47,373 nt of DNA, taken from NCBI GenBank assembly GCA_018900995.1, contig JAHIFH010000012.1, positions 1 through 47,373 on the forward strand. Direction: 5' to 3'. Both the position numbers and the translations under genes were made by a program. The notes beneath the pieces were generated by a model. The model had not been told where the DNA came from and ran no database searches. It saw nothing but the letters and a program-made list of their open reading frames with translations. Positions 5,060 through 47,340 of this stretch are shown here, one piece after another. The stretch's first letter is position 1, and every line of letters starts with the position of its first letter. This DNA comes from Patescibacteria group bacterium. GTDB lineage: Bacteria; Patescibacteriota; Microgenomatia; PFEM01; JAHIFH01.

Positions 5060-6178
5060 ATGAACTGCAAGTCGGTCTTTTTTAGGATTTACGGTTTTTT
5101 TCTCATCTTCATCCTGGCAGTCAATATTGGTCGAGGATTTTTATCGTTATGGTTCATTCAAAATGGATTCGGTTTTCCCCAAATAACCCTTTTTTATTTC
5201 ATTGCTTTCCTTGTTCCCTCACTTATTCTCTTATTCGCTAAAAAATTTTCTACTGCTAGAAGTTTTACTATTGCTTTAATTTCAGAAATTCTTTTGATGT
5301 TATCTGTTTTTCATTTTCATCACCCTCTTCAGCTATATTTTGCCGGAGTTTTCGCCGGCGCAACCGTCGTTTTCTTTTACATCACCTACAATACTCTCTA
5401 TTTTGAAAATACCCCAAAAGATAAAAGAGCTTTTAGTTCCAGCCTTTTTACTCTTGCCGGTCCATTTTTGGGAATTCTTGTTCCTCTTGCCGTAGGTTTT
5501 TTCGGACAAAAATGGGGGCTTTCATCAATCTTCTTGGTTGCTGCTTCAATTTATCTAATCAACCTTTATCTCATCAGATTTTTGCCTAAAATTGAAATCG
5601 AATGTAATCTTCGCCAAAACTTGATAAAAACCAGTCGAATAAATTTTTTGCTCCTTCTTGAAGGAATTAAAGAATCGGTATATTTTGCCGCCATTCCCAT
5701 TTTCACCCTCTTTTTTATCAACCAGCCTCTCCCCTATGGCGCTTATTTTAGTTATCTTGCTTTTATTTCCATCGCTGCCACTATGTTTTTTGGATTCCTT
5801 TCTGACAAATTTAAAAAAAGAGCCATCATTCTTTACCCTGTAACCATCATGGTAGCTTTGACCATCATTGCCCTCGGTTTCGCCCAAAGTCTTTCCTGGT
5901 GGACAATAATCTCAGGCGCCCTAGGCTTCCTTTTGGTTCTCAATGGTACTTTTGTCACCACTTTAGTCCTGGATCAGGTGTCTGAGGTTAAAGTAGGAAT
6001 GATCAGTAGAGAATTTTTACTGGGTGTTGGTAGGACAATTGGTATGGCTATTGTCTTTGCCTCTCTCGCCTTATTTAATTCACCAAAACTAGCTCTAATT
6101 CTTATTGGTTCACTATATCTTCTCTTCCCTCTAACTGTCTATGTCAAGAAAATTTATCAAAAAGGATTATTGTCTTAA
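5060..6178 (+). CDS. Polytopic membrane transporter, MFS-like
   Basis: About 11-12 hydrophobic helices with a central loop. Assignment is weak and made by topology only. Confidence 0.45.
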   Translation: MNCKSVFFRIYGFFLIFILAVNIGRGFLSLWFIQNGFGFPQITLFYFIAFLVPSLILLFAKKFSTARSFTIALISEILLMLSVFHFHHPLQLYFAGVFAGATVVFFYITYNTLYFENTPKDKRAFSSSLFTLAGPFLGILVPLAVGFFGQKWGLSSIFLVAASIYLINLYLIRFLPKIEIECNLRQNLIKTSRINFLLLLEGIKESVYFAAIPIFTLFFINQPLPYGAYFSYLAFISIAATMFFGFLSDKFKKRAIILYPVTIMVALTIIALGFAQSLSWWTIISGALGFLLVLNGTFVTTLVLDQVSEVKVGMISREFLLGVGRTIGMAIVFASLALFNSPKLALILIGSLYLLFPLTVYVKKIYQKGLLS

Positions 6179-7195
6179 TTTTGGGGAGAAAAATCCTTTG
6201 ATAAACAAAACTCCATAAACAAGATGGGTAACAAAAATCGAAGGCACTATCAATAAGGCAAGTCTGAGATTTCTTTCTTTAAGATAAACTTCGGCAACTG
6301 TAATCAAGAGTAATAGGAGGTAAACAAAAACTGAAAATAAATATAAAAGAAAAAGAGGAATTGAAATTATACAAAGCTGAAAAATCTCCAGGACAAAGAT
6401 TAAAAGCGGTCCCCCAAAAAGTCCCAAAACAAAAATCGTCGGCATAAAATAACCAATTCGGAAAGAAGTCTCCGGTAAAATCCTAGCAAAATGACCTCGA
6501 TGAATGGCATAGCGAGAGATTTGTTTTAAATGGGGTCCAAAAACTTCTCGACGATGATGATAAACAAGAACTTTTGGGTCATAAATAATTTTCTTTTTCA
6601 ATTTTTTGGTTAAAAGCAGACATAAGCGCGTGTCCTCGCCTGGCCAGAAATGGGAATCAAATCCGCCAACTTTGACAAAGTCTCTTTTTCTCACTAAAAA
6701 ATTAACGGTTGGGTAGTCGTCGATTTCTTTTCTAGGATAAATTGCACAACGATAAGTCCCTGCCCCACTGCTCCCCAACCAAGTCGACCAAACATATCCC
6801 GAGGCTTTTTGACGGAGATTATTATGCGGCGGGGTTAAACTGGGTCCACAAACAGCAGCAATTGGCTGGTGACTAGTGGCTGGTGGTTGGTGACTGGTGA
6901 AAATTTTAACCGCATTTTTCAGCCAATTTTTGTCAGGATAGGAGTCATCATCTAAAAAAGCGAGAATTTCACCCTTTGCTTTTCTAGCGCCGATATCTCT
7001 TTTATCCGCTGGTCCGGTTTTTGGATAAGTAGGGATAATTCTGGTTTGGGGAAATCTTTCTTTTGTTTTCTTATCAGGGAGGATGATAATCTCGAAGTTT
7101 TTATAAGTCTGTTTTAGAATCGCGGGAATCGTTTCTTGACGAAGATAATCATTTATTTTTTTAACAGGAATAATGATAGAAACCTTAGGAGTCAT
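6167..7195 (-). CDS. GT2 glycosyltransferase with C-terminal transmembrane helices
   Basis: VSIIIPVKKINDYLRQETIPAILKQTYKNFEIIILPD and FLDDDSYP (DxD). The C-terminal ~100 aa are hydrophobic. Confidence 0.85.
   Translation of the reverse strand: MTPKVSIIIPVKKINDYLRQETIPAILKQTYKNFEIIILPDKKTKERFPQTRIIPTYPKTGPADKRDIGARKAKGEILAFLDDDSYPDKNWLKNAVKIFTSHQPPATSHQPIAAVCGPSLTPPHNNLRQKASGYVWSTWLGSSGAGTYRCAIYPRKEIDDYPTVNFLVRKRDFVKVGGFDSHFWPGEDTRLCLLLTKKLKKKIIYDPKVLVYHHRREVFGPHLKQISRYAIHRGHFARILPETSFRIGYFMPTIFVLGLFGGPLLIFVLEIFQLCIISIPLFLLYLFSVFVYLLLLLITVAEVYLKERNLRLALLIVPSIFVTHLVYGVLFIKGFFSPKLRQ
6864..6898. repeat. Heptamer tandem array GRYTRGT x5
   Basis: ggctggt gactagt ggctggt ggttggt gactggt. It encodes TSHQPPATSHQP. 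Confidence 0.9.
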
Positions 7196-7200
7196 TAAAA

Positions 7201-8004
7201 TTAGCTAATATCGGCTTTAAAATTTAAATCCGGATCATGGCGCCATTTCCGTTTATTATGACCGTCGTAATAGCGAAGAATTTTGAGGCGGTAAAAAACT
7301 GCCAAAGTATCTACAAGCATACCCCAAATTGTCCCAGTCCCTATGCTGGAATATTTTAGTCTTCTGGCATCCATTTCTACCGGACCATCATGAATTTTTT
7401 CAAATCCCAACCTCTTGGCTACTGACAACATCTCAATATCAAAAGCAAAATTTTTCACTAAAAGACGCGGCAAAACCTTTTCCAGAGCTTTCCTTTTGAA
7501 AATCTTCAAACCTCGCTGGCTATCAGTAATCCGCAATCCAAAAAGCCATTTAGTCAGGACATGATACCCCCAACTTAAAATTTTCCTTTTCAGGGGATAC
7601 CCATAAACTTTAGAAGCTGAGTGGCGAATGGAGCCAACGATAATATCGGAACCATACCAAATCATATGTTCCAAGAGTATCGATAAACCATTGGGGTCAA
7701 TATCCATTCCGGCATCAATAAAGGCAATTAGATCCCCTTTTGTTTTTGCCATCCCGTATCGGACTGCATGTCCTTTACCTTTATTTTCCTTGTAGCCAAT
7801 GACCTTTAGTTTTTTAGATTTAACCTTCTTAGCATTTTCATAAGTTTTATCTACTCTTCCATCAATTACACAAATAATTTCATAATCATAACGAATCTGC
7901 TTGAGGACTTCCTCAATCCGCTGAAGGTCTTTTTTAATTGTCTTTTCCTGCTTATAGGCGGGAACGATAACTGAAAGTAGGTGCTTTTTTGGTTTTGTTA
8001 TCAC
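7201..8004 (-). CDS. GT2, polyprenol-phosphate sugar synthase-like (DPM1/GtrB type)
   Basis: LSVIVPAYKQEKTI..., ENKGKGHAVRYGMAKTKGDLIAFIDAG. It overlaps the upstream flippase ORF by 53 nt, so the start is uncertain. Confidence 0.75.
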   Translation of the reverse strand: MITKPKKHLLSVIVPAYKQEKTIKKDLQRIEEVLKQIRYDYEIICVIDGRVDKTYENAKKVKSKKLKVIGYKENKGKGHAVRYGMAKTKGDLIAFIDAGMDIDPNGLSILLEHMIWYGSDIIVGSIRHSASKVYGYPLKRKILSWGYHVLTKWLFGLRITDSQRGLKIFKRKALEKVLPRLLVKNFAFDIEMLSVAKRLGFEKIHDGPVEMDARRLKYSSIGTGTIWGMLVDTLAVFYRLKILRYYDGHNKRKWRHDPDLNFKADIS

Positions 8005-9256
8005 TATAAATATAATATACCAAAAGGCTGATGAGGAGCAAGCTTAGAATAGAAATTGAGACCCAAACTATTTGAGATAAGCTTTGGTGGAAAAGAAAAA
8101 TCAAAATAACTTGGGCAGCAGCAGCAATAACTGGTAAGACAACCACTTTAACTTTTTTTACCGAAAGATAAAAGTTTACTAACAGAGAAGAAAGTGAATA
8201 CAGACTTAAGAATATAGCGAAAAGAAAGAGATAAGGTGAAGCCGAAAGATATTGGCGGCCATAAAGGATATTAATCATTAACTTGGGAAAAAGAAAATAA
8301 ATTCCACTAATCCCCAAACAAGTAAGCAAAACCAAACCCAGGCTTAAACTGAGAAGATTAATGTATTTTTTCCCGTTAGCGTGTCGCTCAGAAACCATCG
8401 GGAACATTACCATAATTATCGGGCTTGAGGCAAAGAAAATGATTTTGCCTAAAGTCGCTAAAGCGGCATAAAAGCCCGCTTCCTGAGCTGGTAAAAAATG
8501 TCTTACCAATACAATGTCAGTCGTATAAAGCGAGGTAAAAGCAAGAGTGGAAAAAAACACTGGAACAGCATATCTAACAATCTCCTGGCTGTTTATCGTT
8601 TTCTTTCTTTCTTTCTTTCTTTCAAATAAACGCCTAACAAAAAAAGCTGTCAATAAATAGCCAATCAGCGCACTTACTAAAAAGGCTAAAACTGCACCTA
8701 AAACTTTCCATCCCAAATAAACTAATAAAACAGCTATTCCAAGTTTTAAGACGACTTGAACTGCTCCTGAAATTGACATTAAACCGAAACGAAGGAATCC
8801 CTGAAGGGTAGTAACGTTAACCATAAAATAGACTCCAACTAAGCTCGATGTTATTATTAACAGCAAAGGTAAAATCGATTTAAGATGAAGAAATGAGGCA
8901 ATTAATGGAGAGATTATTATTAATAACAGAAACCCAGCTAAACTAAAAATTACTAACTTTTTATTTAACCAAGAATAAAAATAAAAAATTGTCCCAAAAT
9001 CCTTTTTCCCTCGTAAGGCAGAGACATATTTAACTACTACCAAACTTAAACTATTAACGGGAATGCTGATTAGATAACTGAAGGAAATCAACGAAGCAAG
9101 AATGCCATAATCAATGGGTCCCAACATCCGCCCCATCAAAAGATGATAAAGATAGTTGCCAAAATTGGCAAACATATTACCGGCAAATAAAATAGCACTA
9201 CCAGCAATCAGCTGATTTTCGATTAATTTCAGTAATTTTAGTTTAAGAGGGTTCAT
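7952..9256 (-). CDS. Wzx/MOP-superfamily oligosaccharide flippase
   Basis: About 12-14 TM helices. The N-terminal AGSAILFAGNMFANFGNYLYHLLMGRMLGPIDYG is typical of polysaccharide-export flippases. Confidence 0.7.
   Translation of the reverse strand: MNPLKLKLLKLIENQLIAGSAILFAGNMFANFGNYLYHLLMGRMLGPIDYGILASLISFSYLISIPVNSLSLVVVKYVSALRGKKDFGTIFYFYSWLNKKLVIFSLAGFLLLIIISPLIASFLHLKSILPLLLIITSSLVGVYFMVNVTTLQGFLRFGLMSISGAVQVVLKLGIAVLLVYLGWKVLGAVLAFLVSALIGYLLTAFFVRRLFERKKERKKTINSQEIVRYAVPVFFSTLAFTSLYTTDIVLVRHFLPAQEAGFYAALATLGKIIFFASSPIIMVMFPMVSERHANGKKYINLLSLSLGLVLLTCLGISGIYFLFPKLMINILYGRQYLSASPYLFLFAIFLSLYSLSSLLVNFYLSVKKVKVVVLPVIAAAAQVILIFLFHQSLSQIVWVSISILSLLLISLLVYYIYSDNKTKKAPTFSYRSRL
8600..8623. repeat. 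Tetranucleotide repeat (TTTC)x6
   Basis: Read directly. On the minus strand it is (GAAA)6, encoding ERKKERKK in the central loop of the flippase. Confidence 0.95.
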
Positions 9257-9270
9257 TTAAAAAAGAGTTA

Positions 9271-10584
9271 CTAAGCCAGCCAGTATCCTCGAGTGAAAAA
9301 TAATAGAGAAATAATTAATAGTGGAATAGCGATGAGCGGATACAAGATTCTCACCCACCTATATTTCTCTGCCCAAATAGCAAGAAGAATAAAGCCAGGA
9401 AAAAGAACCAGGGCATAGCGAGGTAAAGAGGAAAAAGTGCCAGTCAGAGTAGGGGTGATATAAGCTAAAGCCATAAAAGTAACATAAGGATACCAGCGCC
9501 GAAGCCAGGCAAAGAGACTTAGAACTAAAAAGGCAGTGCCACTGAAAAATTCCAAAATAACAACAAAGTAAGTAGGAGTTAACTTTTCACAGGTCACGAG
9601 CATCTTTAGGTAACGCCAAAAAACTTGATAAAGAAGTACTAATTTAGTCGCTGTTCTCCCGGCCCCAAAATAAGGTTGGACGTGAAGAAACAAAAGTGGA
9701 TCCTGGAATTTGGTAGCTAAATAGGACATATAACCAATTAATCCCAAAGGGATAAATAAAAGCGGGATTAAAGTGATCGGTGATCGGTGAGTGGTGGTCG
9801 GTTTTTTTCTGGTCGCTGGTGGCTGGTGGCTGGTAGCTCCTTGCTGCCACCATTCAACAAGCAAGGCTGGAAAGAGAAAAACTCCTGGCAAACGAGTTGA
9901 TGTCGCTAACAAGCCGAAAATACCTGCTAGCCACCAGTGTTTGGTTCTGGCAAAATAAAAACTGGCGAGAACGAGCATTAGGAACAATGACTCGGTATAA
10001 ACGGCGGCAAAGTAAAAAGCCGTCGGGAAAATTAGCAAATAGACAACTGCTCTTTTGGCTATACTTTTTTGATAGTCCAGTCTGATCAATTTATAGAAAA
10101 TTAATAGAGCAAAAAATAAACTAACGGTTGAGACAAACAAACCGGCCACCAAATCACGACCATAAAAAAAGGGGGTTAGAGCCTTGATTAACTTCGGATA
10201 AAGAGGAAAAAAGGCCTGCTGATAAATTCCATATCCCTTTCGGGCAATATCCAAATAATGAATTCCATCAAAATTAGCTCGACTCCAAAGCCAACGGGGG
10301 CTAACCACTTGCTTCTCGGTATAAAGATATTCCATAGTGGTGGGAAAATACTGTTCGCCAAGAACAATTAGACCACCAATCAATACTTGCCAGATGACAA
10401 AAACTGACAGAATAAAAGGAAGAGTTTTTTTACTACACCGGCTGCAAGGCGACACTAGTCGCCGCAGTCCCGCACTAGAACGGTGCGGGATAGCACAGCC
10501 CCGTACGAAAACTCTCTCAGCTTTAGCGCTGGAGGCGTTTTCATTTTTTCGTAATAATTTCCTGATATACTTTGTAAGTTTCAT
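9271..10584 (-). CDS. PIG-V-like (GT76-type) polytopic mannosyltransferase
   Basis: NFDGIHYLDIARKGYG...QAFFPLYP matches the PIG-V family signature. Multiple TM helices. The N-terminal 55 aa are atypical and GC-rich. Confidence 0.65.
   Translation of the reverse strand: MKLTKYIRKLLRKNENASSAKAERVFVRGCAIPHRSSAGLRRLVSPCSRCSKKTLPFILSVFVIWQVLIGGLIVLGEQYFPTTMEYLYTEKQVVSPRWLWSRANFDGIHYLDIARKGYGIYQQAFFPLYPKLIKALTPFFYGRDLVAGLFVSTVSLFFALLIFYKLIRLDYQKSIAKRAVVYLLIFPTAFYFAAVYTESLFLMLVLASFYFARTKHWWLAGIFGLLATSTRLPGVFLFPALLVEWWQQGATSHQPPATRKKPTTTHRSPITLIPLLFIPLGLIGYMSYLATKFQDPLLFLHVQPYFGAGRTATKLVLLYQVFWRYLKMLVTCEKLTPTYFVVILEFFSGTAFLVLSLFAWLRRWYPYVTFMALAYITPTLTGTFSSLPRYALVLFPGFILLAIWAEKYRWVRILYPLIAIPLLIISLLFFTRGYWLA
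9773..9838. repeat. Composite element: 4 heptamers, GTTTTTTTCT, 4 heptamers (66 nt)
   Basis: gtgatcg gtgatcg gtgagtg gtggtcg gtttttttct ggtcgct ggtggct ggtggct ggtagct. It encodes ATSHQPPATRKKPTTTHRSPIT. Confidence 0.9.
10442..10490. other. GC-rich twin hairpin element
   Basis: Hairpin A: CTGC-aa-GGCGAC ACTA GTCGCC-GCAG (10442-10467). Hairpin B: TCCCGCAC TAGAACG GTGCGGGA (10468-10490). Both were verified base by base. Confidence 0.8.
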
Positions 10585-11587
10585 TGGCTACCTTTTCCCA
10601 ACTAAATTTTTTCGCTTGCTTTAATCCCTTTTCTATTAAATCCTCTCTTAAATCTTCGTCTTCAATGACAACTGTCAAACCATTAGCAATATCATTTATA
10701 TCATAAGGGTCAACGAAAACTGCTGCCTTGCCTGCGATTTCCGGCAAACTCGCCTTTTTGCTCGTTACTACTGGAGTTCCGCAAGCCATCGCTTCGAGAA
10801 CCGGCAAGCCAAAGCCTTCGTAAAATGACGGCTGACAATAAACGGTGGCTAAATTATAAAGGACGACTAAATCTTTATCGGGAACAAAACCAGTGAGGAT
10901 GATTGATGATTTGCAGTAATCCTGCAACCAAACTAAATCGCGGTTTTCAGGATGGCTTCGGTCAATTTTTCTCTCAACTGCCTGTTTGCCGACAATAACT
11001 AAGGGTATTTTTGCTTTCTCGCAAGCCTTGACCAGGCCGCGAATATTTTTATTGTAATTAACGTCACCGACGTATAAAACAAACTTACTGGGAAGATGAT
11101 ATTTTTGTTTTACAGTAACCAGTGATTGGTGACTAGTAATCGGTTTAAAAATATCAGCCGCCGCCAAATAAACAACATGAATTTTTTCTTTTGAATAATC
11201 TAAATATTTAGTGATGTCTTTTTTAGAGTTTTTAGAATCGGTAATGACACCACTCGCTGTTCTTAGAGCCAGCTTTTGGGCTCTAAATTTCAACTTACCC
11301 TTTATTCCAGGCGGATAATGTTCTGGAAAAACTAGCGGCGTAGTGTCGTGAATGGTGACTACCGTCTTTTTCTTTCTCATTAAAGGTAAAGTCATAAAAA
11401 ACAAATCAAAATAAGAATAATGAATTAAGTCGCAATCTTGAGGAATTTCTCCTTCTTCCACTAAAACCAACTCAAAATCAGCCCTTTTGAAAGACTGCAA
11501 AGCCTTAACAAGATTCTTAGTATAGGCGCCAATGCCCCGAAATTGATGGGCTGACTTTAATGGAGAAATATCAATGGCAACTTTCAT
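10541..11587 (-). CDS. GT4 family (GT-B) glycosyltransferase
   Basis: PSFYEGFGLPVLEAMACGTPVVTS is the Glycos_transf_1 E-x7-E region. Confidence 0.9.
   Translation of the reverse strand: MKVAIDISPLKSAHQFRGIGAYTKNLVKALQSFKRADFELVLVEEGEIPQDCDLIHYSYFDLFFMTLPLMRKKKTVVTIHDTTPLVFPEHYPPGIKGKLKFRAQKLALRTASGVITDSKNSKKDITKYLDYSKEKIHVVYLAAADIFKPITSHQSLVTVKQKYHLPSKFVLYVGDVNYNKNIRGLVKACEKAKIPLVIVGKQAVERKIDRSHPENRDLVWLQDYCKSSIILTGFVPDKDLVVLYNLATVYCQPSFYEGFGLPVLEAMACGTPVVTSKKASLPEIAGKAAVFVDPYDINDIANGLTVVIEDEDLREDLIEKGLKQAKKFSWEKVANETYKVYQEIITKK
11115..11142. repeat. Heptamer tandem array GTRAYYR x4
   Basis: gtaacca gtgattg gtgacta gtaatcg, then gttt. It encodes KPITSHQSLVT. Confidence 0.85.
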
Positions 11588-11597
11588 AATTCTATTT

Positions 11598-12467
11598 TTA
11601 CTTTCTTACTAAGTATCGCCAGTAGGCCCTAGGAAATCTTAGGGCAGAGAAAAAAGAAAAAACAATTCCTTGAAAGCTATCAAGAATTCCTTTATGCCTA
11701 ATAAGAGTTAACAAGAACCAATGAATAGGTTTTATCAAGGAATAATTTAGGAACTGAATTGGATTTTTACCTAATCGGGCTTCTTTAAACTCAGCTGTGA
11801 TTAAATCAATATACTTACTGTTCCTTTCAAGATATCTTTTAAATGTCGGGTCAGCTAGATGAATAAGGTCATTCTGCAACCAGCCTATCCTGCCATTAAT
11901 TACAATCTGTTCATGAACACTTTTGCACGGAAAATATGCTTTGCCATTCTTGACTAGACGAATGACCCCATCAGGATAAACACCGCCATAGCGAAGGTAT
12001 TTACCCAAAAAGTAATTTAAGCGGGGCATAAAAAATCCAGCATATTCTCCGCTGTCTTTACCAATTTTCCCATCTCTTTTTTCTATTATCCTTTGATGCC
12101 TTTGAAACAAATTCTTATTTGGAAGCGTTTCTTGATATTTCTTGATTTTCCTTTCACTTAAGGAAACAATCATTTTAATCTCCTCAGCTAATTTCTTTGT
12201 CACCCTCTCATCAGCATCCAATTGGAGAATCCACTCTCCCTTACAAGCATCAAGGGCTTTTTGTTTATTAATGTGAAAGATAGGTGGATTATCAGTCACC
12301 ATTACTTTGGCGCCGTGTTTTTTAGCGATGGCAACCGTATCATCTTCAGAAGAACCATCAACCACAACAATCTCATCCGCTAAATCTTTCACTGACTCCA
12401 AACAGGAGCCAATATTTTCTTCCTCGTTATAGGTGGCTAGGGCTACAGAAATAGTTTTTTTCTTCAT
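11598..12467 (-). CDS. GT2 glycosyltransferase (WaaE/KdtX-like subgroup with helical C-terminal domain)
   Basis: ISVALATYNEEENIGSCLESVKDLADEIVVVDGSSEDDT and LQLDADERV. Paralogous to 31940..32716 and 33599..34501. Confidence 0.9.
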   Translation of the reverse strand: MKKKTISVALATYNEEENIGSCLESVKDLADEIVVVDGSSEDDTVAIAKKHGAKVMVTDNPPIFHINKQKALDACKGEWILQLDADERVTKKLAEEIKMIVSLSERKIKKYQETLPNKNLFQRHQRIIEKRDGKIGKDSGEYAGFFMPRLNYFLGKYLRYGGVYPDGVIRLVKNGKAYFPCKSVHEQIVINGRIGWLQNDLIHLADPTFKRYLERNSKYIDLITAEFKEARLGKNPIQFLNYSLIKPIHWFLLTLIRHKGILDSFQGIVFSFFSALRFPRAYWRYLVRK

Positions 12468-16964: not shown

Positions 16965-16991
16965 TTTGAGCCTGCGAAAAACAAGCTTTGC

Positions 16992-18653: not shown

Positions 18654-18662
18654 TTTGCCACT

Positions 18663-20550: not shown

Positions 20551-20574
20551 TGAATTATTACCCTTCTTATATTG

Positions 20575-20664
20575 TATAATACTCGAAGAGAATTTTCGAG
20601 GTGTAAAACACCGCTGAATAATACTCGAAGAGGATTATCGAGGCACGAAGTGCCGCTGTATAAT
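20575..20664. repeat. 42-bp tandem repeat x2 plus a third TATAAT, in the divergent intergenic hub
   Basis: Unit 1 (20575-20616): TATAATACTCGAAGAGAATTTTCGAGGTGTAAAACACCGCTG. Unit 2 (20617-20658): AATAATACTCGAAGAGGATTATCGAGGCACGAAGTGCCGCTG. TATAAT follows at 20659-20664. Confidence 0.85.
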
Positions 20665-20669
20665 AAACC

Positions 20670-22343: not shown

Positions 22344-22351
22344 ATTAGAAA

Positions 22352-28158: not shown

Positions 28159-28200
28159 TCTACTAACCTCTTGTTTCGGCTGGAAAGAGGACGGTAAACT

Positions 28201-30491: not shown

Positions 30492-30497
30492 CTGAAG

Positions 30498-34501: not shown

Positions 34502-34509
34502 CGCTCTAT

Positions 34510-37684: not shown

Positions 37685-37713
37685 GCCCTAATTTTATCAC
37701 AATTACCCCAGAT

Positions 37714-41044: not shown

Positions 41045-42624
41045 CTTTTCCACCAAAATTCCCTGTCTAACTCAAAGAATAACAGCTGGTCTTGTTCGCC
41101 TTCTGGAGTAAGTGCTTTGGGATACTCTCCAACTAATTTCAATCCATAAGCCTCCGGCGGTATCTGTAGACGGCTTTGATTAACCACCAGATAAACATCA
41201 TTATCAACAAGCGAATTAACCAAACTGGAATGAACTCCAGTAATCGGATAACCCACCCCAATCACAGTCACATTGGGAACTTTTTCCAAATAAATCTGTA
41301 AACCATCAGGGAGGGTCCCAAAAGAGCCTTCAGTTCCCACCAAAACATTCTTTTCTTTTGCTTTTTCCTTAATAAAATCAGCAATTTCTCTAATCCCTTG
41401 CCCCGCCGTCCACTCCTCAAGATAACCAGAGCGCATCCTTCTTGGCAACGGTGCTTTTTCGGGCTCGGTTAATAATAAATAATTATAGTAAAGCGAAGGA
41501 ATGATGATTAACAGAATTAATAAGGCAAGGAGATTAGTTTTGATTTTTAATTTTTTAACCATTACTGAGAAAAAATAGGCAGCGATAATGAGAAGGGGCC
41601 AAATAGTAAAAAGAATATAGCGGGGAGTAAAAACCTTAGCAAAAACTGATTGAACCAACAAGGGCACGGCGCTAACTGAAAACAGCCAACTGGCCTGACG
41701 CCAATTTTCTCTTTTCAACCACATCCAAACCAAACCAGCCACGGCTAATAATAAAACTGGCCAAGTCAACAAATTGGGCAACCATTGAGCCAAATCAAAT
41801 AAATGGGGTTTAAGTGGATCAAAAGGATGGGAAAGAATCCATTCAAAAGAGAAAACGTAATCTTTGTTCCGAATAGCAATCATCTGAAAATTTGGACCTA
41901 AACGAAGCAAGTTATAAATCCCAAAAGCAAAAACATAAACTACTCCCCAGAGAATAACTATCTTTCCCAGATTTAGTAAGTGTTTTTTCTGAACAAAACG
42001 GCGTCGGCTAGGAAAAGGGTAAAATAGAAAAGTCGTTGGCAATAAAATTGCGTAAAAAAGCGCTGGTGATTTAGTGATTAATGCCGCGCCCAATATCATC
42101 CCAGTAATCATGGCTAAATCAAGGCGTAAATTTTTTATTAATAATAAGCCAAAATAAAAAAACCAGATCCCAAACATTGCCAGTAAAGAGTCAACCAAAG
42201 CCATCCGGTCGAAAAAAACAAAAAAGGGAACAACAGCATAAAACAAGGAAGTAATTAAAGAGGTTTTTTTATCTTTAAACAACTCATAGCTCAGTAAAAA
42301 GATACCAATCAGCGATCCCAAGCCAGCCAAAACTGATAAAAATCTGCCAGTAAAAAGAGGGTTTTTAATCACTCCTAAAGCAAACATTAACATCCACATA
42401 AAAAAGGGCTGTTTACCGTCAGAAAGAGGCAAAAAACGCAAAGTCGGCTCGGCTTTCATTACTTGAGACCAACGAATATAAATGGCTTCATCAGCAAAAA
42501 TAGGAAGAATGGTGAGATTAATCAGCCTCAATAAAAAGAAAACAATAAGAATCCCAATCCCGAAAATAATTGTCCATTTCCATTCTCGAAAAAATTTCTT
42601 AATCATACTTACCTCTCCAGTCAT
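41041..42624 (-). CDS. ArnT/GT39-like polytopic glycosyltransferase
   Basis: PIFADEAIYIRWSQ loop-1 motif, many TM helices and a C-terminal soluble domain. Confidence 0.7.
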   Translation of the reverse strand: MTGEVSMIKKFFREWKWTIIFGIGILIVFFLLRLINLTILPIFADEAIYIRWSQVMKAEPTLRFLPLSDGKQPFFMWMLMFALGVIKNPLFTGRFLSVLAGLGSLIGIFLLSYELFKDKKTSLITSLFYAVVPFFVFFDRMALVDSLLAMFGIWFFYFGLLLIKNLRLDLAMITGMILGAALITKSPALFYAILLPTTFLFYPFPSRRRFVQKKHLLNLGKIVILWGVVYVFAFGIYNLLRLGPNFQMIAIRNKDYVFSFEWILSHPFDPLKPHLFDLAQWLPNLLTWPVLLLAVAGLVWMWLKRENWRQASWLFSVSAVPLLVQSVFAKVFTPRYILFTIWPLLIIAAYFFSVMVKKLKIKTNLLALLILLIIIPSLYYNYLLLTEPEKAPLPRRMRSGYLEEWTAGQGIREIADFIKEKAKEKNVLVGTEGSFGTLPDGLQIYLEKVPNVTVIGVGYPITGVHSSLVNSLVDNDVYLVVNQSRLQIPPEAYGLKLVGEYPKALTPEGEQDQLLFFELDREFWWKR

Positions 42625-43351
42625 TAATTTTAACCCGCAAGATCTCTAAAAGCATCTCTTTAGATTCTTTGATAAAGCTTCTTTGTTTTCCTACGGCAAC
42701 GTCTCTGTCTTCCCAGGCTACTGGCACCTCTTTGATTTTATAACCCAATTTTTCCGCCACATAAAGCATTTCTACATCCCAGGCTCCCACTCGCCAACCT
42801 TTGGCTTCTCTTGTTTGTTTAAATATTTGCATTTTTTTAAAAATCTCTTTGCCTGCTTTTTGACCAAAAACTTTGAAACCACATTGAGTATCAATGATAT
42901 TTCGGAGTAAAAGTGTTCTTCTAAAAAAGCGAAAACCCCAAGAAATGATTTTTCGGTACCAGGGAAAGTGCCTCCTTTCCTTACCTCGCGAGCCAATAAC
43001 CACGTCAAATCCTTTTTTGAACCAAGGCAGTAACTTTTCTATCTCAGAGGCTGGGGCTGACTGGTCCATATCAGTAAACAAAACAATCTCTCCTTTAGCT
43101 TTCGTTAGACCAGATTTAATCGCAAAGGGCTTACCCGCATGCTTATTTCTTAATAATTTAAAACGAGAATGATATTTAACGTATTTCTCAACTATTTTTA
43201 AACTAGCATCAGTGGAACCATCATCAGAAACAATCACCTCACTGGCGTAGTCTTGTTTCTTAAGATAATTTTCTATTTCTTCCAAAACCCCTCGTTTGAG
43301 GTTTCTTTCCTCATTGAACATTGGGATGATAACTGAAAGATAGGGTTTCAT
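42599..43351 (-). CDS. GT2 polyprenol-phosphate sugar synthase-like (DPM1/ALG5/ArnC type)
   Basis: LSVIIPMFNEERNL..., EVIVSDDGSTDAS, HAGKPFAIKSGLTKAKGEIVLFTDMDQS. Confidence 0.75.
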   Translation of the reverse strand: MKPYLSVIIPMFNEERNLKRGVLEEIENYLKKQDYASEVIVSDDGSTDASLKIVEKYVKYHSRFKLLRNKHAGKPFAIKSGLTKAKGEIVLFTDMDQSAPASEIEKLLPWFKKGFDVVIGSRGKERRHFPWYRKIISWGFRFFRRTLLLRNIIDTQCGFKVFGQKAGKEIFKKMQIFKQTREAKGWRVGAWDVEMLYVAEKLGYKIKEVPVAWEDRDVAVGKQRSFIKESKEMLLEILRVKINDWRGKYD

Positions 43352-43373
43352 TTAATTATCCTCAATCTTTTCC

Positions 43374-44927
43374 TTATCGGCTATGGATTAAACGATAAAC
43401 TTCCACTCCTTCTAATTCCCACTTTTGCTCAATTTTTGACCAGCCAAAGTTGGCTATTTCTGCTGCAGGAGCTGTTGTCGGCTGACAGGGAAGTTTCTCG
43501 CAAATAACGAATAATTGTTCTGTGATCGTCTCTTCGGCGCGCAACGGCTCGATATCAGTGGGCGGAGTTCTCCATCTCTCCATAAAATAAGCATAGGCAG
43601 CTGGATAATTTCTTTCGGCAATCAATCCGAGATTAAATGGTTTTTCTTTAGCCTCATCAATAATAAAGCGGGCAATTTTCTGGGTTCGGCCTAACTGATT
43701 ATTAGGCTTATTTTTCAACGGACATTTTTGAAAAGAAAGAAAAACTAAGAAACACAAAGCAAGAATGACAATCACCTTTCCATAGACTCTTTTTTCCCAA
43801 ACTTGAGAAAGCACCCAACCCACTAAAAGGAAGGGAGCGGGAAAGAAGAAACCAAAATAATGGTCATAAATATGCTGTTTGTAATTGCCTAAGCCGAATA
43901 AACCGATTGTTAGCCAAACCAAAATCAAAATCAATTCCCGATTATCCTGCCAGATTTTTTGCCAATTTAGTTTTTTGTAATAACGCTCCGTACTGAAACC
44001 AGCTAATCCCAAAATCATTAGCAGCGCCAGCCAACTTCCATAGGTTTCGTTTTTACCGGCTATTAATCTCGTAGACACTTGAGAAACTAAATCCCAAAGA
44101 TTAGGAATGGCTTTGTAAACTTTCAAATTAACAGTGGTTTGGCGAACAGTAAAAAAGGTTTTAAAAGCTTGGAAATTAATGAAATTATGACGCAAATCAA
44201 ACCAAACCATGGGTGCTATTGTAAGGATACTAAAGATAAGAATACAGTAGATTGTGTATCGTATTAGTGATTTAAGCCTTGATTTTTTCTTAAAAACATT
44301 TTTGAAAGCCAAAAGCCAAAAAATTGAGACTGTTGGAATTAAAAGCAAGCCCAAATAATGGGATTGAAGAGCAAAAGAAAGAGCAATACCGACAATGGGA
44401 ATCCACCAATATTTTTTCTTAACCCAAAATTGATAAATACCATAAATGGTTAAAAGAGCAAAGAAAGGCATAATATTGGGATTCCAAGAAGAACGAGAAT
44501 AAATAATCACTACTGGGGCAAGAGCATAAAGAAAAGCAGCTATTAAACCAGCTTGTTTATCAAACCACTCTCGTCCCACCCACCAAACAAATCCGACCGT
44601 TACCACACCTAGAAACGCCACCATTGCTGACGGCCCAACGGGTGATAAACCAAACAACAAAAACCAGGGTAAAGCAAAATAATAATACAAAGGCCCCAAA
44701 TACATATTGCCAATTGAAGTCACCGGTCCGATTAAAACAAACTTCCCTTTTCTTATCATCCTTAGCCAAACCAAAGCATCTCGCCCTTCATCGCCTAAAA
44801 AAGTCATGTATTCAGGCAAACGATAAAAACGGAGGAAAGCAGCCACAAAAAGAACTAAAGACAAAAGAATAGCTTCGGTCCGATTGGCTTCTATAAACTC
44901 GGTTACTTTCTTTTTTATCTCTTTCAT
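43374..44927 (-). CDS. ArnT-like polytopic glycosyltransferase
   Basis: MTFLGDEGRDALVWL loop motif and GPVTSIGNMYLGPLYYY. Paralogue of 30498..31943. Confidence 0.7.
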   Translation of the reverse strand: MKEIKKKVTEFIEANRTEAILLSLVLFVAAFLRFYRLPEYMTFLGDEGRDALVWLRMIRKGKFVLIGPVTSIGNMYLGPLYYYFALPWFLLFGLSPVGPSAMVAFLGVVTVGFVWWVGREWFDKQAGLIAAFLYALAPVVIIYSRSSWNPNIMPFFALLTIYGIYQFWVKKKYWWIPIVGIALSFALQSHYLGLLLIPTVSIFWLLAFKNVFKKKSRLKSLIRYTIYCILIFSILTIAPMVWFDLRHNFINFQAFKTFFTVRQTTVNLKVYKAIPNLWDLVSQVSTRLIAGKNETYGSWLALLMILGLAGFSTERYYKKLNWQKIWQDNRELILILVWLTIGLFGLGNYKQHIYDHYFGFFFPAPFLLVGWVLSQVWEKRVYGKVIVILALCFLVFLSFQKCPLKNKPNNQLGRTQKIARFIIDEAKEKPFNLGLIAERNYPAAYAYFMERWRTPPTDIEPLRAEETITEQLFVICEKLPCQPTTAPAAEIANFGWSKIEQKWELEGVEVYRLIHSR

Positions 44928-45640
44928 CTCTTTTTCAATTTTCGGTAAAAACGTAAAAGATCAACATAGCCACTAAGAGCGACTTTTAGAGTGATGCCCG
45001 TCGCTTGGCCAGCTTTTCGCGGGTAGTGATGAACTCCAACCTGGCTAATCTTAAATCCCTCTTTTTTAGCTTTAACTAAAAGCTCGGTAGTGATAAACGG
45101 TCCCCGCTCAGCTTCGAGCCGAGGAATTTTATCAATTACTTTTTTACTAATAAGCTTAAATCCGCAGTCAATATCCCTAGCTCTAAGTCCAAAAAGAAGA
45201 AAAACAGGCAACTCCCAAAGAATTTTTGAAATTAAAATCCGATAAAAAGGTTCCGCCCTTTTAAGATAATAGCCAATCACCAAATCTGCTTTAGACTGGT
45301 GTTGTTCTTTAATAAATTTTGTGATTTCGGAAAAGTCAAATTGACCATCGGCGTCGGTGAAAGCAATCAATTCATATCGAGCATTGTAAACGCCACTTTT
45401 AATGGTTGCGCCATAGCCTCGATTTGGGGTATGGGTAATCATCTTGATTCGTGGTTCTTTTTTGATTAATTCCTCAACAATCTCGCCGGTCTTATCAGTT
45501 GAGCCATCATCAATAACAATAATCTCCCATTTCTTAGCTACCTTAGGAAGGATTTTAATGGCTTTAGTTACCGTTGTTTTAATATTGTCTTCTTCGTTGT
45601 AAGCCGGAAAGAAAACCGAAAGCTCCTTCACCTTCTCCAT
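44924..45640 (-). CDS. GT2 polyprenol-phosphate glycosyltransferase (GtrB/DPM1-like)
   Basis: LSVFFPAYNEEDNI, EIIVIDDGSTDKTGEIV, NRGYGATIKSG and AFTDADGQF. Confidence 0.8.
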   Translation of the reverse strand: MEKVKELSVFFPAYNEEDNIKTTVTKAIKILPKVAKKWEIIVIDDGSTDKTGEIVEELIKKEPRIKMITHTPNRGYGATIKSGVYNARYELIAFTDADGQFDFSEITKFIKEQHQSKADLVIGYYLKRAEPFYRILISKILWELPVFLLFGLRARDIDCGFKLISKKVIDKIPRLEAERGPFITTELLVKAKKEGFKISQVGVHHYPRKAGQATGITLKVALSGYVDLLRFYRKLKKR

Positions 45641-45687: not shown

Positions 45688-46890
45688 ATGATGATAGTGA
45701 TGAAGGCAATTCAAAAATCCTGGCGAGATCTCCTGATTATCTGCCTTGTTTCCTTGGGCGCCACCGCCCTCATTTGGTTACCTTTTTTTCTTAGATTAAC
45801 GAGTTTTTGGAAAATTTCTTTACCAGCTGAAGGCATGGCAACAATAATGAAGAACTTTGATGGACTTTATTATGTTGTTATTGCCAAATCTCTTTATAAT
45901 CCCGAAATTATCAAAAATCTTGTCCCCTTTAATTTGCCAGCGATTTATTATGCCGCTCATTTTCCTCTTTATCCTTTACTAATTAAAATTGGTGGATTGG
46001 TCGTTAACCACACTTGGTCTATGCTTTCGATTAGTGTGATTGCTTCTTTGCTTTCAGCTATTGTTTTTTATCTTTTTCTCAAAGAGTTTAAACTCTCCAA
46101 GGACCCACTATGGCTAACAATCATTTATCTTCTCTTCCCCGCCCGCTGGTTAATTGTTCGCTCAGTTGGCTCACCTGAGTCTTTGTTTATGCTCTTTTTA
46201 CTAACTTCCTTTTATTATTTTAAAAAGAAAAACTACTTGTTCGCCGGTGGCTTTGGGGCTTTAGCCCAACTAACCAAACCCCCTGGTATTCTTCTTTTTG
46301 TTGCCTATGCTATTTATCTTTTTTGGCAAGAATCTAAGGAAACTTGGTTTACTCGTTTAGCCCAAGTATTTCGTTTATCTCGTCCAACTTGGCTAGCTCA
46401 ATTAACTAAAAAGGTTTATCCTCTCCTTTTAATCCCCTTAGCCTCAATAGGCGTCTGCCTATACTATTTATATATATACGGCGATTTCTTTGCCTATTTC
46501 CATTCTGGCGACAATATCCACCTTTTTTGGCCTCCACTTCAAGTTTTTAATGCCGCTGCTGCTTGGGTAGGAACTTATTGGCTTGAAGAAGTAATTTATG
46601 TTTATCTTTTGGGGATTTTGGGAGTGATTTATTTATTCAAACAGAAACGCTATGATTTAGGAATTTTTGCCGCTATCTTTTATTACACCATTCTTTTCAT
46701 TTCTCATCGCGATATCAGTCGCTACAGTTTACCCATGCTGCCTTTTATTTTAATTGCTTTTGATAAATTCTTGGTCAGGAAAGAATTCAAAATTGCTTTT
46801 GCCGTCATTCTCTTACCAATTTATCTTTATGTCATCAACTTCATTGCCGGGAATACTTTAGCTATCGCTGACTGGGCGCCTTTTCTTTAG
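45688..46890 (+). CDS. PIG-V-like polytopic mannosyltransferase, paralogue of 9271..10584
   Basis: NFDGLYYVVIAKSLY...AAHFPLYPLLI and multiple TM helices. Confidence 0.6.
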   Translation: MMIVMKAIQKSWRDLLIICLVSLGATALIWLPFFLRLTSFWKISLPAEGMATIMKNFDGLYYVVIAKSLYNPEIIKNLVPFNLPAIYYAAHFPLYPLLIKIGGLVVNHTWSMLSISVIASLLSAIVFYLFLKEFKLSKDPLWLTIIYLLFPARWLIVRSVGSPESLFMLFLLTSFYYFKKKNYLFAGGFGALAQLTKPPGILLFVAYAIYLFWQESKETWFTRLAQVFRLSRPTWLAQLTKKVYPLLLIPLASIGVCLYYLYIYGDFFAYFHSGDNIHLFWPPLQVFNAAAAWVGTYWLEEVIYVYLLGILGVIYLFKQKRYDLGIFAAIFYYTILFISHRDISRYSLPMLPFILIAFDKFLVRKEFKIAFAVILLPIYLYVINFIAGNTLAIADWAPFL

Positions 46891-46924
46891 CCCGTTCAAC
46901 GGGCTGTAAGTGCGTTTAACGCAC
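46889..46924. terminator. Two short GC-rich hairpins between convergent genes
   Basis: AGCCCG(T) TCA (A)CGGGCT at 46889-46905 and GTGCG TTTAA CGCAC at 46910-46924. Each overlaps the stop codon of one flanking gene. There is no clear T-tract. Confidence 0.4.
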
Positions 46925-47340
46925 TAGCCAGCCCTTTCCTGAAACCAGCCGAAGAGTTTTGATTTTCTGGTTTTCCAAATAAAAGTGGTGTACATGAAAA
47001 AGTTATAGGGCAAGACAAGGAAGCCGATGGCGAAAATCAATAGAATTTGTCGCCACTGGTCGCCAAAGAAAGCTGTACCAACCCAAACAACAATAGTTTG
47101 AATAATTAAAGCGCCCAAAGAAGTAAAATTGAACTGGAGAAATTTATAGGGAATCCGAGTCCAGGAGATAATTTTCTTCTCCGCAAAAGTCCAGATATTA
47201 TTAAGAATAAAGTTATTAATAATGGCTAATTCGGTAGCGACAGCTGTCGCTGGTCCCGGTGATAATCCAGCGCGATAAAATACTTCGAGACCAACGGCAT
47301 TAACAATGTAACCAATAAACCCAACCACAGCAAATTTCAT
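46924..47340 (-). CDS. GtrA-family small membrane protein (lipid-linked sugar translocation)
   Basis: MKFAVVGFIGYIVNAVGLEVFY... with 4 TM helices and a size typical of GtrA. ATG 47340 is preferred over the edge-touching TTG 47373. Confidence 0.7.
   Translation of the reverse strand: MKFAVVGFIGYIVNAVGLEVFYRAGLSPGPATAVATELAIINNFILNNIWTFAEKKIISWTRIPYKFLQFNFTSLGALIIQTIVVWVGTAFFGDQWRQILLIFAIGFLVLPYNFFMYTTFIWKTRKSKLFGWFQERAG

Follow-up and report, generated by a model that had tools for sequence, protein, structure and literature searches.

In the Agl pathway of Haloferax volcanii (AglJ/G/I/E, AglD, AglR, AglS and AglB), an AglJ-type family 2 glycosyltransferase (GT2) initiates on polyprenyl monophosphate, soluble glycosyltransferases build the glycan on the polyprenyl-phosphate carrier and a flippase moves it; a membrane enzyme of the GT-C class with an oligosaccharyltransferase (OST) fold can transfer the glycan, and a further GT-C enzyme adds a sugar outside from a separate lipid-phosphate-sugar (PMC3871713). 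Here, we describe a bacterial glycosylation locus of at least 41 kb on contig JAHIFH010000012.1 of a Patescibacteria group bacterium (assembly GCA_018900995.1). The whole contig (positions 1–47,373) was analysed and is called the window, and genes are named by their first coordinate. GT-C enzymes, whose catalytic acidic residue sits just after the first membrane helix, act outside the membrane in mycobacterial arabinogalactan and lipoarabinomannan synthesis and in YfhO/GtrC-type decoration, and actinobacterial Pmt O-glycosylates proteins with polyprenyl-phosphate mannose. Patescibacteria have a minimal metabolism and live attached to other cells. A protein-family survey of the candidate phyla radiation and a 2024 perspective make no mention of glycosyltransferases, and a preprint on pili calls glycosylation in Saccharibacteria unexplored.

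The locus is likely to be one copy of a composite locus for cell-surface glycosylation, of a type that is conserved across the Microgenomates-type class. Because the same gene order recurs across this class, the locus probably builds an elaborate surface sugar coat. Its parts are of known kinds, namely those of Gtr/CsbB-YfhO systems, of Wzx-dependent assembly and of PMT/GT87-type GT-C enzymes. Its scale, its class-wide collinearity, its share of a 0.7-Mb genome and its Wzx-coupled family with a predicted OST fold are not described in the searchable literature.

Conservation and gene content of the locus

The backbone of the locus has the order 44924-43374-42599-41041-39383-36191-34510-33599-32691-31940-29439-26556-25711-(variable)-19303-18663-GT-C. 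It is collinear at 37–63% identity in the Shapirobacteria-like loci L015 and L016, and at 50–86% in G001, a genome of the same family and another genus. The syntenic block of G001 (its contig C9, 36.9–76.5 kb) holds 27 orthologues at 47–86% identity; it is without the plus-strand trio of genes that starts at 20670 and without 30498, 27430, 6167 and 7201, and it carries two extra GT-C genes between the orthologues of 42599 and 43374. The two minus-strand runs of the window form a single continuous run in G001. Since G001 has one run without the trio, the two-run architecture is not fundamental, and the two runs are one ancestral array. In L028, at about 61% protein identity, the layout of minus run, hub, plus trio and convergent minus run is the same, and L016 has a single opposite-strand GT-C gene at the position of the trio. 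No insertion scars were seen around the trio when hub 1 and the 25711 junction were compared with the G001 spacer, where only coding sequence aligns. In G002, of the same family, a GTPase-SIS gene 77% identical to 12464 has six neighbouring GT-C genes without an orthologue in the window (best identity 23–36%). The backbone thus appears ancient and fixed, and the GT-C genes seem to turn over rapidly, gene by gene, between genera. With GT-C genes gained, lost or replaced in this way, the glycan would diversify.

Matches to PF13231 (PMT_2) occur at 24 places in the genome, 11 of them inside the window. They range from 0 to 40 in 40 relatives (median 17) and from 17 to 32 in five further genomes of the same class; in 95 genomes from other classes of the phylum, the median is 3 (range 0–21). 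In complete or nearly complete relatives, in which clustering was judged, the matches form clusters of about 60–130 kb: 26 of 32 lie within 128 kb in G024, 14 of 17 within 62 kb in G017, 18 within 90 kb in G023 and 10 of 14 within 63 kb in G011. The GT-C expansion is, by these counts, a trait of the class and not peculiar to this genome. An earlier note, made from the DNA letters of the window, had proposed comparing locus content across related genomes and had called the density and paralogy far beyond a normal O-antigen or capsule cluster. The comparison returns both the expansion and the collinear backbone across the class; the statement holds against O-antigen loci, but not as a peculiarity of one genome, being the normal state of a whole class.

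The window is the largest contig of a 72-contig, 708-kb assembly that is 91% complete with 5.9% estimated contamination; synteny with G001 indicates that the contig belongs to the lineage despite that estimate. The G+C content is uniform across the window (0.335–0.387), and by this evenness the locus is native DNA. Three locus genes have homologues in records that bear the names Patescibacteria group, Candidatus Microgenomates and Candidatus Shapirobacteria. Both contig ends truncate the locus, and glycan genes continue to the left one. The share of the genome devoted to such genes, which the earlier note had suggested determining, was estimated with hidden Markov models built from the window's own proteins, which find 28 GT2, 13 GT4, 22 PMT-like GT-C, 2 GT87 and 3 Wzx open reading frames (ORFs) genome-wide. 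At least 67 distinct glycosyltransferase or flippase ORFs make up 83.9 kb, or 11.8% of the assembly, with 37.4 kb on the window contig (C24), and the same scan shows that a second glycan locus occupies contig C66. By a crude gene call, the genome has about 741 genes and is 94% coding. About one of every eleven genes, and some 12% of the DNA, serve glycosyl transfer, which implies that the surface glycan is central to its lifestyle, e.g., in host attachment, protection or phage evasion.

Gene classes were assigned by Pfam, NCBIfam, a sequence search of the PDB, BLASTP paralogy, hhalign and one AlphaFold2 (AF2) fold with Foldseek. Homology, profile comparison and the fold prediction together give 16 GT-C enzymes, in line with the roughly 16 expected by the earlier note. 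Pfam supports 13606, 15288, 16992, 24012, 37714, 39383, 41041, 43374 and 45688 as PMT/PMT_2/PTPS_related types, all nine above the PMT/PMT_2 cut-off, 39383 marginally so in the genome scan; 19303 and 28201 exceed the GT87 cut-off. A DE-type motif (ADE, WDE, FDE or GDE) stands in the first extracytoplasmic loop of 13606, 15288, 16992, 22352, 24012, 41041, 43374 and 30498, and this motif and the PMT/PMT_2 domain are features of PMT (GT39) and ArnT-like (GT83) enzymes. More broadly, an acidic motif right after the first membrane helix (DE, HDD, HD, PD or FDG) is kept in 15 of the 16. A sequence search of 13606 against solved structures gave no match. The gene 43374 is alone in the genome in passing the Pfam STT3 threshold, with a score weaker than its PMT_2 score; in control genomes the STT3 model matches archaea only, and a WWD-type motif is in no protein of the window, 43374 included.

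Six membrane proteins have no Pfam match, and five of them are tied to GT-C enzymes. Paralogy (BLASTP) links 22352, 30498 and 9271, the last with a PF13231 six-frame match below the cut-off (E 4.5e-5) and with an orthologue in L028 that weakly matches PF04188 (Mannosyl_trans2). The fourth, 20670, aligns with the profile of its PMT_2 paralogues over 434 columns (hhalign probability 98.8%, E 5.5e-17); its family is very rare, with 23 proteins among 5.8 billion at E 1e-5, and the DE motif of its PMT_2 relatives is absent, E37 being invariant. The fifth, 34510, is linked by its fold. The content of the locus, nearly all glycosylation as first proposed, is borne out by these assignments, which lead to GT-C enzymes and not to other functions.

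Ten GT2 enzymes lie within the locus, three of them short enzymes resembling polyprenol-phosphate sugar synthases (PPGS; 7201, 42599 and 44924) and seven others (6167, 11598, 25711, 26556, 31940, 32691 and 33599). The earlier count of 11 was one too high; its three PPGS-like GT2, two GT4, two Wzx and one methyltransferase are all recovered. The three short enzymes are mutual paralogues. Among solved structures, 44924 is closest to ArnC, Pyrococcus DPMS and Synechocystis GtrB, with matches that span residues 4–213 of 238. NCBIfam gives partial matches, below curated cut-offs, to PgfS, ArnC and PpgS for 7201 and to PgfS, ArnC and a haloarchaeal Dol-P hexose transferase for 42599, and the short GT2 enzymes also have a partial match to AglJ. 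In two of the three cases, a PPGS gene lies directly upstream of a GT-C gene, namely 44924/43374 (4-nt overlap) and 42599/41041 (26-nt overlap). Both pairs are conserved in L015, L016, G024 and G098, the second also in G001, and the orthologue of 7201 in G039 (57% identity) adjoins that of 9271. The locus thus has two features of Gtr-type systems, a GtrA protein (46924) and GT-C enzymes encoded with a putative synthase. The G001 orthologue of 46924 (85% identity) has a further GT2 gene directly upstream. That the PPGS-like enzymes could feed the GT-C enzymes, as the earlier note had it, is supported by homology and by the two conserved pairs but not by the NCBIfam scores.

The GT2 genes 11598, 31940 and 33599 form a paralogue group, in which 11598 is 29–31% identical to the other two. 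The solved structures nearest to them are GmaR and SunS, with the similarity confined to the N-terminal 95 residues; in NCBIfam the best matches are SunS, an arsenosugar-type GT2 and GmaR, again over these 95 residues, and no WaaE model was returned. The group was recognised correctly before; its WaaE/KdtX-like label could not be verified, because only the N-terminal 95 residues match known structures.

The family of 34510

The protein encoded by 34510 has no Pfam match even at E 5, no NCBIfam match and no PDB sequence match, either for the protein or for its family profile. Its family comprises more than 1600 homologues, almost all of them likewise without Pfam match, and D54 (in the motif GHDGxWH), E165 and E286 are invariant in a 30-sequence alignment. 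The AF2 model is confident (pLDDT 87.9, pTM 0.89). In a Foldseek search of the PDB with this model, STT3 of yeast and human, AglB of archaea, bacterial PglB and the C-mannosyltransferase DPY19 occupy ranks 1–19 (E 3e-9 to 8e-6, TM about 0.5), followed by AftD; PMT, Emb and ALG3 are much weaker, and AftB and PimE also appear. The C-terminal soluble part separately matches the globular domain of AglB (3vu0). The model thus has the GT-C fold and the C-terminal globular domain of OST (GT66) enzymes, and PF02516 and WWDYG are lacking. These similarities make 34510 a candidate for an en-bloc glycan transferase.

At E 1e-10, the family is found in 7 of 16 sampled genomes of the same class; some 284 genomes from other classes yielded no member. 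In all 12 lineages examined, i.e., the window, G001, L014, L015, L016 and the seven same-class genomes with the family, the gene immediately upstream of the best 34510 homologue is a Wzx orthologue. In three genomes, the homologue is extended at its N-terminus by about 420 residues (ORFs of 985–1144 aa; L020 in G309, L021 in G280 and L025 in G185; proteins P0096 and P0099). This extension has no Pfam match and no similarity to any window protein. A fusion with Wzx was considered for these long homologues and ruled out, the extension being unlike the window Wzx and Wzx being a separate gene upstream. Class-restricted, Wzx-coupled and OST-like in its predicted fold, the family is a cloneable entry point and possibly a glycoengineering tool.

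Layout, other genes and non-coding elements

Run 1 consists of 12 minus-strand ORFs (6167–20550) and run 2 of 17 (25711–45640). Three plus-strand ORFs, the trio, lie between them (20670–25724), and to the right of run 2 a plus-strand ORF is followed by a minus-strand ORF truncated by the contig end (Table 1). From left to right, the junctions of run 1 measure 5, -53, 14, -44, 10, -4, -4, -4, 27, 9 and -8 nt (6 of 11 overlap; largest gap 27 nt), and those of run 2 measure 2, -26, 42, -31, 6, -85, -26, -1, 8, -47, 29, -23, -16, -26, 22 and -4 nt (10 of 16 overlap; largest gap 42 nt). The ORF list is thus identical to the coordinates, gene counts, largest gaps and hubs given before, and overlaps, many of them then described as ATGA-type or longer, are present in 16 of 27 in-run junctions, four of them being 4-nt ATGA overlaps. 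Most N-termini of the longest ORFs align from residue 1 with their G001 orthologues, and overlaps recur there (Wzx/34510: 47 nt in the window vs. 41 nt in G001), suggesting that the longer overlaps are mostly genuine and no artefact of choosing the longest ORF. The overlap of 85 nt at 30498 would probably shrink if an internal Met is the true start.

Table 1 Coordinates and assignments of features in the window
Coordinates	Strand	Assignment	Evidence and remarks
2-373	-	Partial NAD-dependent sugar epimerase/dehydratase, N-terminal part	PF01370 E 5.9e-19; left flank
423-1247	-	GT2	PF00535 E 2.1e-42; left flank
6167-7195	-	GT2, two C-terminal hydrophobic segments (about residues 282 and 314)	PF00535 E 5.5e-14; no orthologue in G001 block
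7201-8004	-	Short GT2, PPGS-like (PPGS 3)	PF00535 E 3.6e-25; 31-32% identity to 42599/44924
7952-9256	-	Wzx-type (MOP) flippase 2	PF13440 E 1.2e-18, PF01943 E 9.7e-16; about 10 hydrophobic segments; 55% identity in G001
9271-10584	-	Polytopic GT-C-like (PIG-V-like), paralogue of 45688	BLASTP E 8e-15; 65% identity in G001
10541-11587	-	GT4 (GT-B fold)	PF00534 E 7.6e-33; 73% identity in G001
11598-12467	-	GT2, SunS/GmaR-type N-terminus, paralogue group member 1	PF00535 E 2.2e-18, residues 7-95
12464-13609	-	GTPase (MMR_HSR1/RsgA-like) and SIS domain fusion	Pfam SIS, SIS_2, MMR_HSR1
13606-15291	-	GT-C, PMT_2 type, member of five-paralogue family	PF13231 E 6.6e-14; NADE after first membrane helix; 74% identity in G001
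15288-16964	-	GT-C, PMT_2 type	PF13231 E 7.5e-10; WDE; 76% identity in G001
16992-18653	-	GT-C, PMT/PMT_2 type	PF02366 E 2.6e-15; WDE; 71% identity in G001
18663-19310	-	215-aa membrane-anchored protein, predicted extracytoplasmic beta-sandwich	AF2 pLDDT 77
19303-20550	-	GT-C, GT87 type, first gene of run 1	PF09594 27.7 bits (cut-off 25); paralogue of 28201 E 1.6e-51; HPD
20551-20669	.	Divergent hub 1, 119 nt, two 42-bp tandem units	Sequence; TRF period 42, 2.1 copies
20670-22343	+	Divergent GT-C, rare family, first gene of trio	hhalign vs. PMT_2 paralogue profile; no Pfam match
22352-24025	+	GT-C, PMT_2-like paralogue	BLASTP vs. 13606 E 1e-46, vs. 15288 E 9e-65; FDE; PF13231 six-frame E 1.9e-4
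24012-25724	+	GT-C, PMT_2 type; convergent 14-nt end overlap with 25711	PF13231 E 8.8e-15
25711-26553	-	GT2 (cytoplasmic), last gene of run 2	PF00535 E 1.5e-30; orthologues G001 (69%), L015/L016 (37-40%)
26556-27455	-	GT2 (cytoplasmic)	PF00535 E 6.9e-24; orthologues in G001, L015, L016
27430-28158	-	Class I S-adenosylmethionine (SAM) methyltransferase	PF08241 E 1.6e-10; not at that position in G001
28201-29469	-	GT-C, GT87 type	PF09594 E 4.1e-9, 37 bits (cut-off 25); 77% identity in G001
29439-30491	-	GT4 (GT-B fold), backbone	PF00534 E 3.5e-29; orthologues 79% (G001), 41-51% (L014-L016)
30498-32024	-	GT-C, paralogue of 43374, variable insert	BLASTP E 1.3e-23 over 519 residues; WDE; no orthologue in G001 block
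31940-32716	-	GT2, SunS/GmaR-type, paralogue group member 2, backbone	PF00535 E 3.4e-24; orthologues 43-62%
32691-33599	-	GT2, backbone	PF13641 E 4.9e-15; orthologues 41-70%
33599-34501	-	GT2, SunS/GmaR-type, paralogue group member 3, backbone, directly downstream of 34510	PF00535 E 2.8e-20; orthologues 47-76%
34510-36237	-	Unannotated GT-C, predicted OST-like fold, GHDGxWH family	AF2 and Foldseek
36191-37684	-	Wzx-type (MOP) flippase 1, most conserved locus gene	PF13440 E 6.9e-51; 86% in G001, 42-55% across class
37714-39405	-	GT-C, YfhO/PTPS_related type	PF10131 E 9.3e-12, PF13231, PF09586 below cut-off; HDD; 41% identical to 39383
39383-41056	-	GT-C, YfhO/PTPS_related type	PF10131 E 3.7e-7; HDD; orthologues in L015, L016, G039
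41041-42624	-	GT-C, PMT_2 type, paired with upstream PPGS 42599	PF13231 E 1.8e-12; ADE
42599-43351	-	Short GT2, PPGS-like (PPGS 2)	PF00535 E 1e-27; orthologues 50-79%
43374-44927	-	GT-C, PMT_2 type, paired with upstream PPGS 44924	PF13231 E 6.7e-11; PF02516 27.5-27.7 bits (cut-off 24.5); GDE
44924-45640	-	Short GT2, PPGS-like (PPGS 1), first gene of run 2	PF00535 E 3.1e-30; 63% identical in L015/L016
45641-45687	.	Divergent hub 2, 47 nt	AGGAGG ribosome-binding site for 45688; 46-nt hub in G001
45688-46890	+	GT-C-like membrane protein, paralogue of 9271	PF13231 E 2e-6, 28.6 bits; 80% identity in G001
46924-47373	-	GtrA-family small membrane protein, putative polyprenyl-phosphate-sugar flippase, 5' end at contig end	PF04138 E 7.2e-16, 58.9 bits (cut-off 26.1)
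3743-3782, 3898-3932, 6863-6899, 9773-9838, 14091-14122, 17094-17129, 26430-26452		7-nt arrays	

Compared with the genome, the locus is packed more tightly: the median same-strand junction is -4 nt vs. 6 nt, 100% vs. 71% of such junctions are at most 42 nt, and 59% vs. 39% overlap. Run length by itself is not special, since co-oriented runs of 34 and 31 genes stand on contigs C28 and C66. Convergent genes overlap at their 3' ends by 12 nt at 6167–6178 and by 14 nt at 25711–25724, leaving no terminator space between opposing units. Consensus promoter and terminator scans within the runs give numbers close to those of shuffled sequence (44 vs. 46.8, 62 vs. 51.5, 31 vs. 21.1 and 24 vs. 19.7) and are uninformative in either direction.

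Among non-coding elements, hub 1 alone is clearly conserved; each of its units consists of a TGTATAAT-type box and a hairpin. With both 42-bp units it is conserved in L028 (9881–10000), where the proteins are only about 61% identical, and where the hairpin stems differ, the changes are paired. The last TATAAT of hub 1 stops 5 nt short of the ATG at 20670, so that the mRNA would be almost leaderless. On the minus strand at 18157–18185, inside the GT-C gene 16992, a hairpin of 13 uninterrupted base pairs around a 3-nt loop (about -21 kcal/mol) is followed by a T-rich tail; it encodes an FFHRKKRAFF loop, similar in G001, and because this loop is conserved the hairpin is probably incidental rather than an internal terminator. 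The commonest tandem repeat of the genome has a 7-nt period, about 4–6 copies and a different unit in each array. There are 40 such arrays of at least 3.5 copies in the 708 kb, 6 of them on the window contig, and 28 further arrays of period 14; with 40 arrays spread genome-wide, the idea that they mark the locus as phase-variable is not supported as locus-specific. A B12-binding radical SAM enzyme (2747–4231) with two 7-nt arrays lies among glycosylation genes in the left flank. Rfam and tRNA scans returned no matches.

Two further genes of run 1 differ from the glycosyltransferases around them. The GTPase-SIS fusion 12464 has partial NCBIfam matches to MurQ, GmhA and YqeH; it holds the same position in G001 and G002, with 75–77% identity, and is absent from that position in L028. 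Its homologues (56% identity) also occur on contigs of metagenome-assembled genomes with 50–67% GC whose labels are Bipolaricaulota or Thermotogae, and no conserved glycosylation genes adjoin them there, an odd distribution for a gene inside an operon-like run. Contig L001, syntenic with the window and with a GTPase-SIS gene 77% identical, is labelled 'uncultured Gammaproteobacteria bacterium', which looks wrong. The earlier note had placed one nucleotide-sugar gene at the left edge and none inside the runs; the left-edge epimerase/dehydratase (2–373) is confirmed, and the second statement is weakened because 12464 carries a SIS domain of the sugar-phosphate-isomerase type. The other gene, 18663, has no Pfam or NCBIfam match. 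Its AF2 model consists of an N-terminal helix, a beta-sandwich of about 135 aa and two C-terminal helices, with weak jelly-roll/CBM matches at most in Foldseek, so that the protein is possibly glycan-binding. It always adjoins the GT87 gene 19303 (window, G001, L015/L016 and L028).

Proposed pathway, alternatives and known systems

In the pathway that we propose, soluble GT2 and GT4 enzymes (33599, 32691, 31940, 29439, 26556 and 25711) would assemble an oligosaccharide, carried on polyprenyl phosphate, at the cytoplasmic face, initiation being by a phosphoglycosyl transferase from another contig or by an AglJ/ArnC-like short GT2. Wzx 36191 would move the lipid-linked glycan to the outer face, and 34510 would transfer it en bloc to an acceptor encoded outside the window. 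In parallel, 44924, 42599 and 7201 would load single sugars onto polyprenyl phosphate, GtrA 46924 would flip them, and the other 15 GT-C enzymes (PMT_2, YfhO-like, GT87 and PIG-V-like) would add them one by one outside the membrane; the methyltransferase would modify the product. The specific order of these steps is tentative and perhaps a shade more likely to be wrong than right. Homology supports the earlier suggestion that the cytoplasmic GT2 and GT4 enzymes and Wzx fit the building and export of a lipid-linked oligosaccharide.

No initiating phosphoglycosyl transferase is present in the window or within 10 kb of the loci L014–L016. Such enzymes are encoded on other contigs (Bac_transf on C58 and C23; Glycos_transf_4 on C62 and C42, the C42 enzyme being the second MraY/WecA-type transferase of the genome), with none on C24. 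This would be compatible with initiation on polyprenyl monophosphate by an AglJ/ArnC-like GT2, as in the Agl pathway, and equally with an off-contig transferase. The window genes also include no Wzy, LCP or chain-length regulator and almost no nucleotide-sugar genes; for Wzy/ligase (PF04932) there are only sub-threshold matches, inside 37714. Elsewhere in the genome there are one LCP ligase and six Wzy_C (PF04932) proteins above the cut-off, all on other contigs. The window encodes no acceptor protein, as claimed before. Of the S-layer, pilin or Ser/Thr-rich proteins that the earlier note had recommended looking for nearby, no SLH-type anchoring domain was found. By composition only, the genome offers at least five candidates that have long Pro-Ser/Pro-Thr linkers (three on C56 and one each on C9 and C71), of which three have strongly hydrophobic N-termini, and three that resemble type IV pilins (two on C51, one on C59), all of them away from the window contig. 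These proteins and a wall polymer, given the LCP ligase of the genome, are equally possible acceptors.

Several points weigh against the proposed pathway. The initiating transferase, Wzy and ligase all lie on other contigs. All NCBIfam matches of the short GT2 enzymes are far below curated cut-offs, and these enzymes are without the C-terminal membrane helices of GtrB and ArnC. WWDYG is absent from 34510 and from the invariant columns of its family, and 34510 has no sequence-level link to solved structures, to oligosaccharyltransferases or to the PMT_2 paralogues. Because of the missing motif and the missing match to true oligosaccharyltransferases, 34510 may simply be another elongating GT-C, like AftD. 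More generally, similarity of fold or family does not fix donor, acceptor or order of action, and the genes may serve several unrelated acceptors instead of one pathway.

Among the alternatives, a wall- or lipid-anchored glycopolymer (a secondary wall polysaccharide, a teichoic-acid-like polymer or a lipoglycan), built and decorated by GT-C enzymes acting in series outside, is the strongest and has a substantial chance of being right, if less than an even one. It is suggested by the YfhO/PTPS_related and GT87 types in the locus, by AftD, AftB, Emb and PimE in the fold search with 34510, by the tandem arrays of paralogous GT-C genes, which suggest stepwise elongation, and by the LCP ligase, two Bac_transf enzymes, second MraY/WecA-type transferase and six Wzy_C proteins of the genome. 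However, none of the LCP, Wzy or initiating functions lies within the conserved locus, and no SLH-type anchoring proteins were found.

The locus could also serve mainly protein glycosylation, with PMT_2-type GT-C enzymes O-glycosylating Ser/Thr-rich linkers and pilins and Wzx with 34510 adding a preassembled glycan to proteins, which we regard as rather unlikely. The PMT/PMT_2 matches with a DE loop-1 motif typical of protein O-mannosyltransferases, the linker and pilin-like proteins, the OST-like fold of 34510 including its C-terminal domain and the resemblance of 11598-type N-terminal domains to the protein/peptide glycosyltransferases GmaR and SunS all agree with it. However, the broad PMT_2 family also includes ArnT-like lipid/glycan transferases, and 16 GT-C enzymes far exceed the need of any known protein O-glycosylation system; moreover, the WWDYG motif is missing, the locus has no linked acceptor gene, and the candidates were picked out by composition only.

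A third explanation, still less probable, is that several unrelated glycosylation systems lie side by side in a compact, co-oriented genome, with many internal promoters rather than two operons. Long one-strand runs (34 and 31 genes) and short junctions (71% at most 42 nt) are indeed general in this genome, gene content turns over gene by gene between genera, and two Wzx and at least three PPGS genes suggest more than one module. On the other side, the backbone order is kept down to 37–63% identity, the overlaps are conserved and all 27 in-run junctions are at most 42 nt; promoter- and terminator-like sites are not enriched inside the runs, and hub 1 remains the one clearly conserved non-coding element.

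A more far-reaching idea is that the core of the locus is a bacterial counterpart of the archaeal and eukaryotic lipid-linked-oligosaccharide pathway, with a new, WWDYG-less oligosaccharyltransferase family for surface proteins that is confined to Microgenomates-type Patescibacteria. The glycan, once flipped, would be lengthened by GT-C enzymes at the outer side and handed over en bloc by this family. We consider this idea doubtful, more so than any of the three explanations above; if it is true, GT-C gene turnover would tune host recognition or phage evasion. Finally, many of the membrane proteins might be transporters or other polytopic proteins instead of glycosyltransferases. This idea, to which the six Pfam-less proteins, the unassigned 18663 and the missing DE motif of 20670 might point, is largely refuted and very improbable, five of the six being tied to GT-C enzymes by paralogy, profile–profile comparison or fold and the neighbours all being glycosylation genes.

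Set beside known systems, the composite locus that we favour shares with the Agl pathway and the eukaryotic pathway of the endoplasmic reticulum (ALG, DPM1, STT3) the logic of building, flipping, transferring and extending, and 34510 is like STT3 and AglB by predicted fold; in contrast to both, the locus is bacterial, has many more GT-C enzymes, and its 34510 has neither WWDYG nor an STT3 Pfam match. The Wzx/Wzy clusters for O-antigen or capsule likewise have Wzx next to GT2 and GT4 genes, whereas the window is without Wzy, chain-length regulator and initiating transferase and is far larger and far richer in GT-C genes. With Gtr-type systems (GtrA/GtrB/GtrC of Shigella phages, CsbB/GtcA/YfhO of Bacillus and Listeria, ArnC/ArnT), it shares PPGS-like GT2 enzymes, GtrA, GT-C enzymes including the YfhO/PTPS_related type, and a GT2 gene directly upstream of a GT-C gene. 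Where those systems have one of each, however, the locus has 16 GT-C enzymes and 3–4 putative synthases in one array; these synthases are without C-terminal membrane helices, and they are combined with a Wzx module and many cytoplasmic glycosyltransferases. The mycobacterial and corynebacterial GT-C ensemble (EmbA-C, AftA-D, MptA-D, PimE and Pmt) also has many GT-C enzymes that act in series outside the membrane on polyprenyl-phosphate sugars; the locus has GT87-type members too, and AftD, AftB, Emb and PimE are among the fold matches of 34510. There is no sequence-level orthology between the two, and whereas the actinobacterial genes are scattered over a genome of more than 4 Mb, those described here are about ten times denser per Mb and stand in one collinear array.

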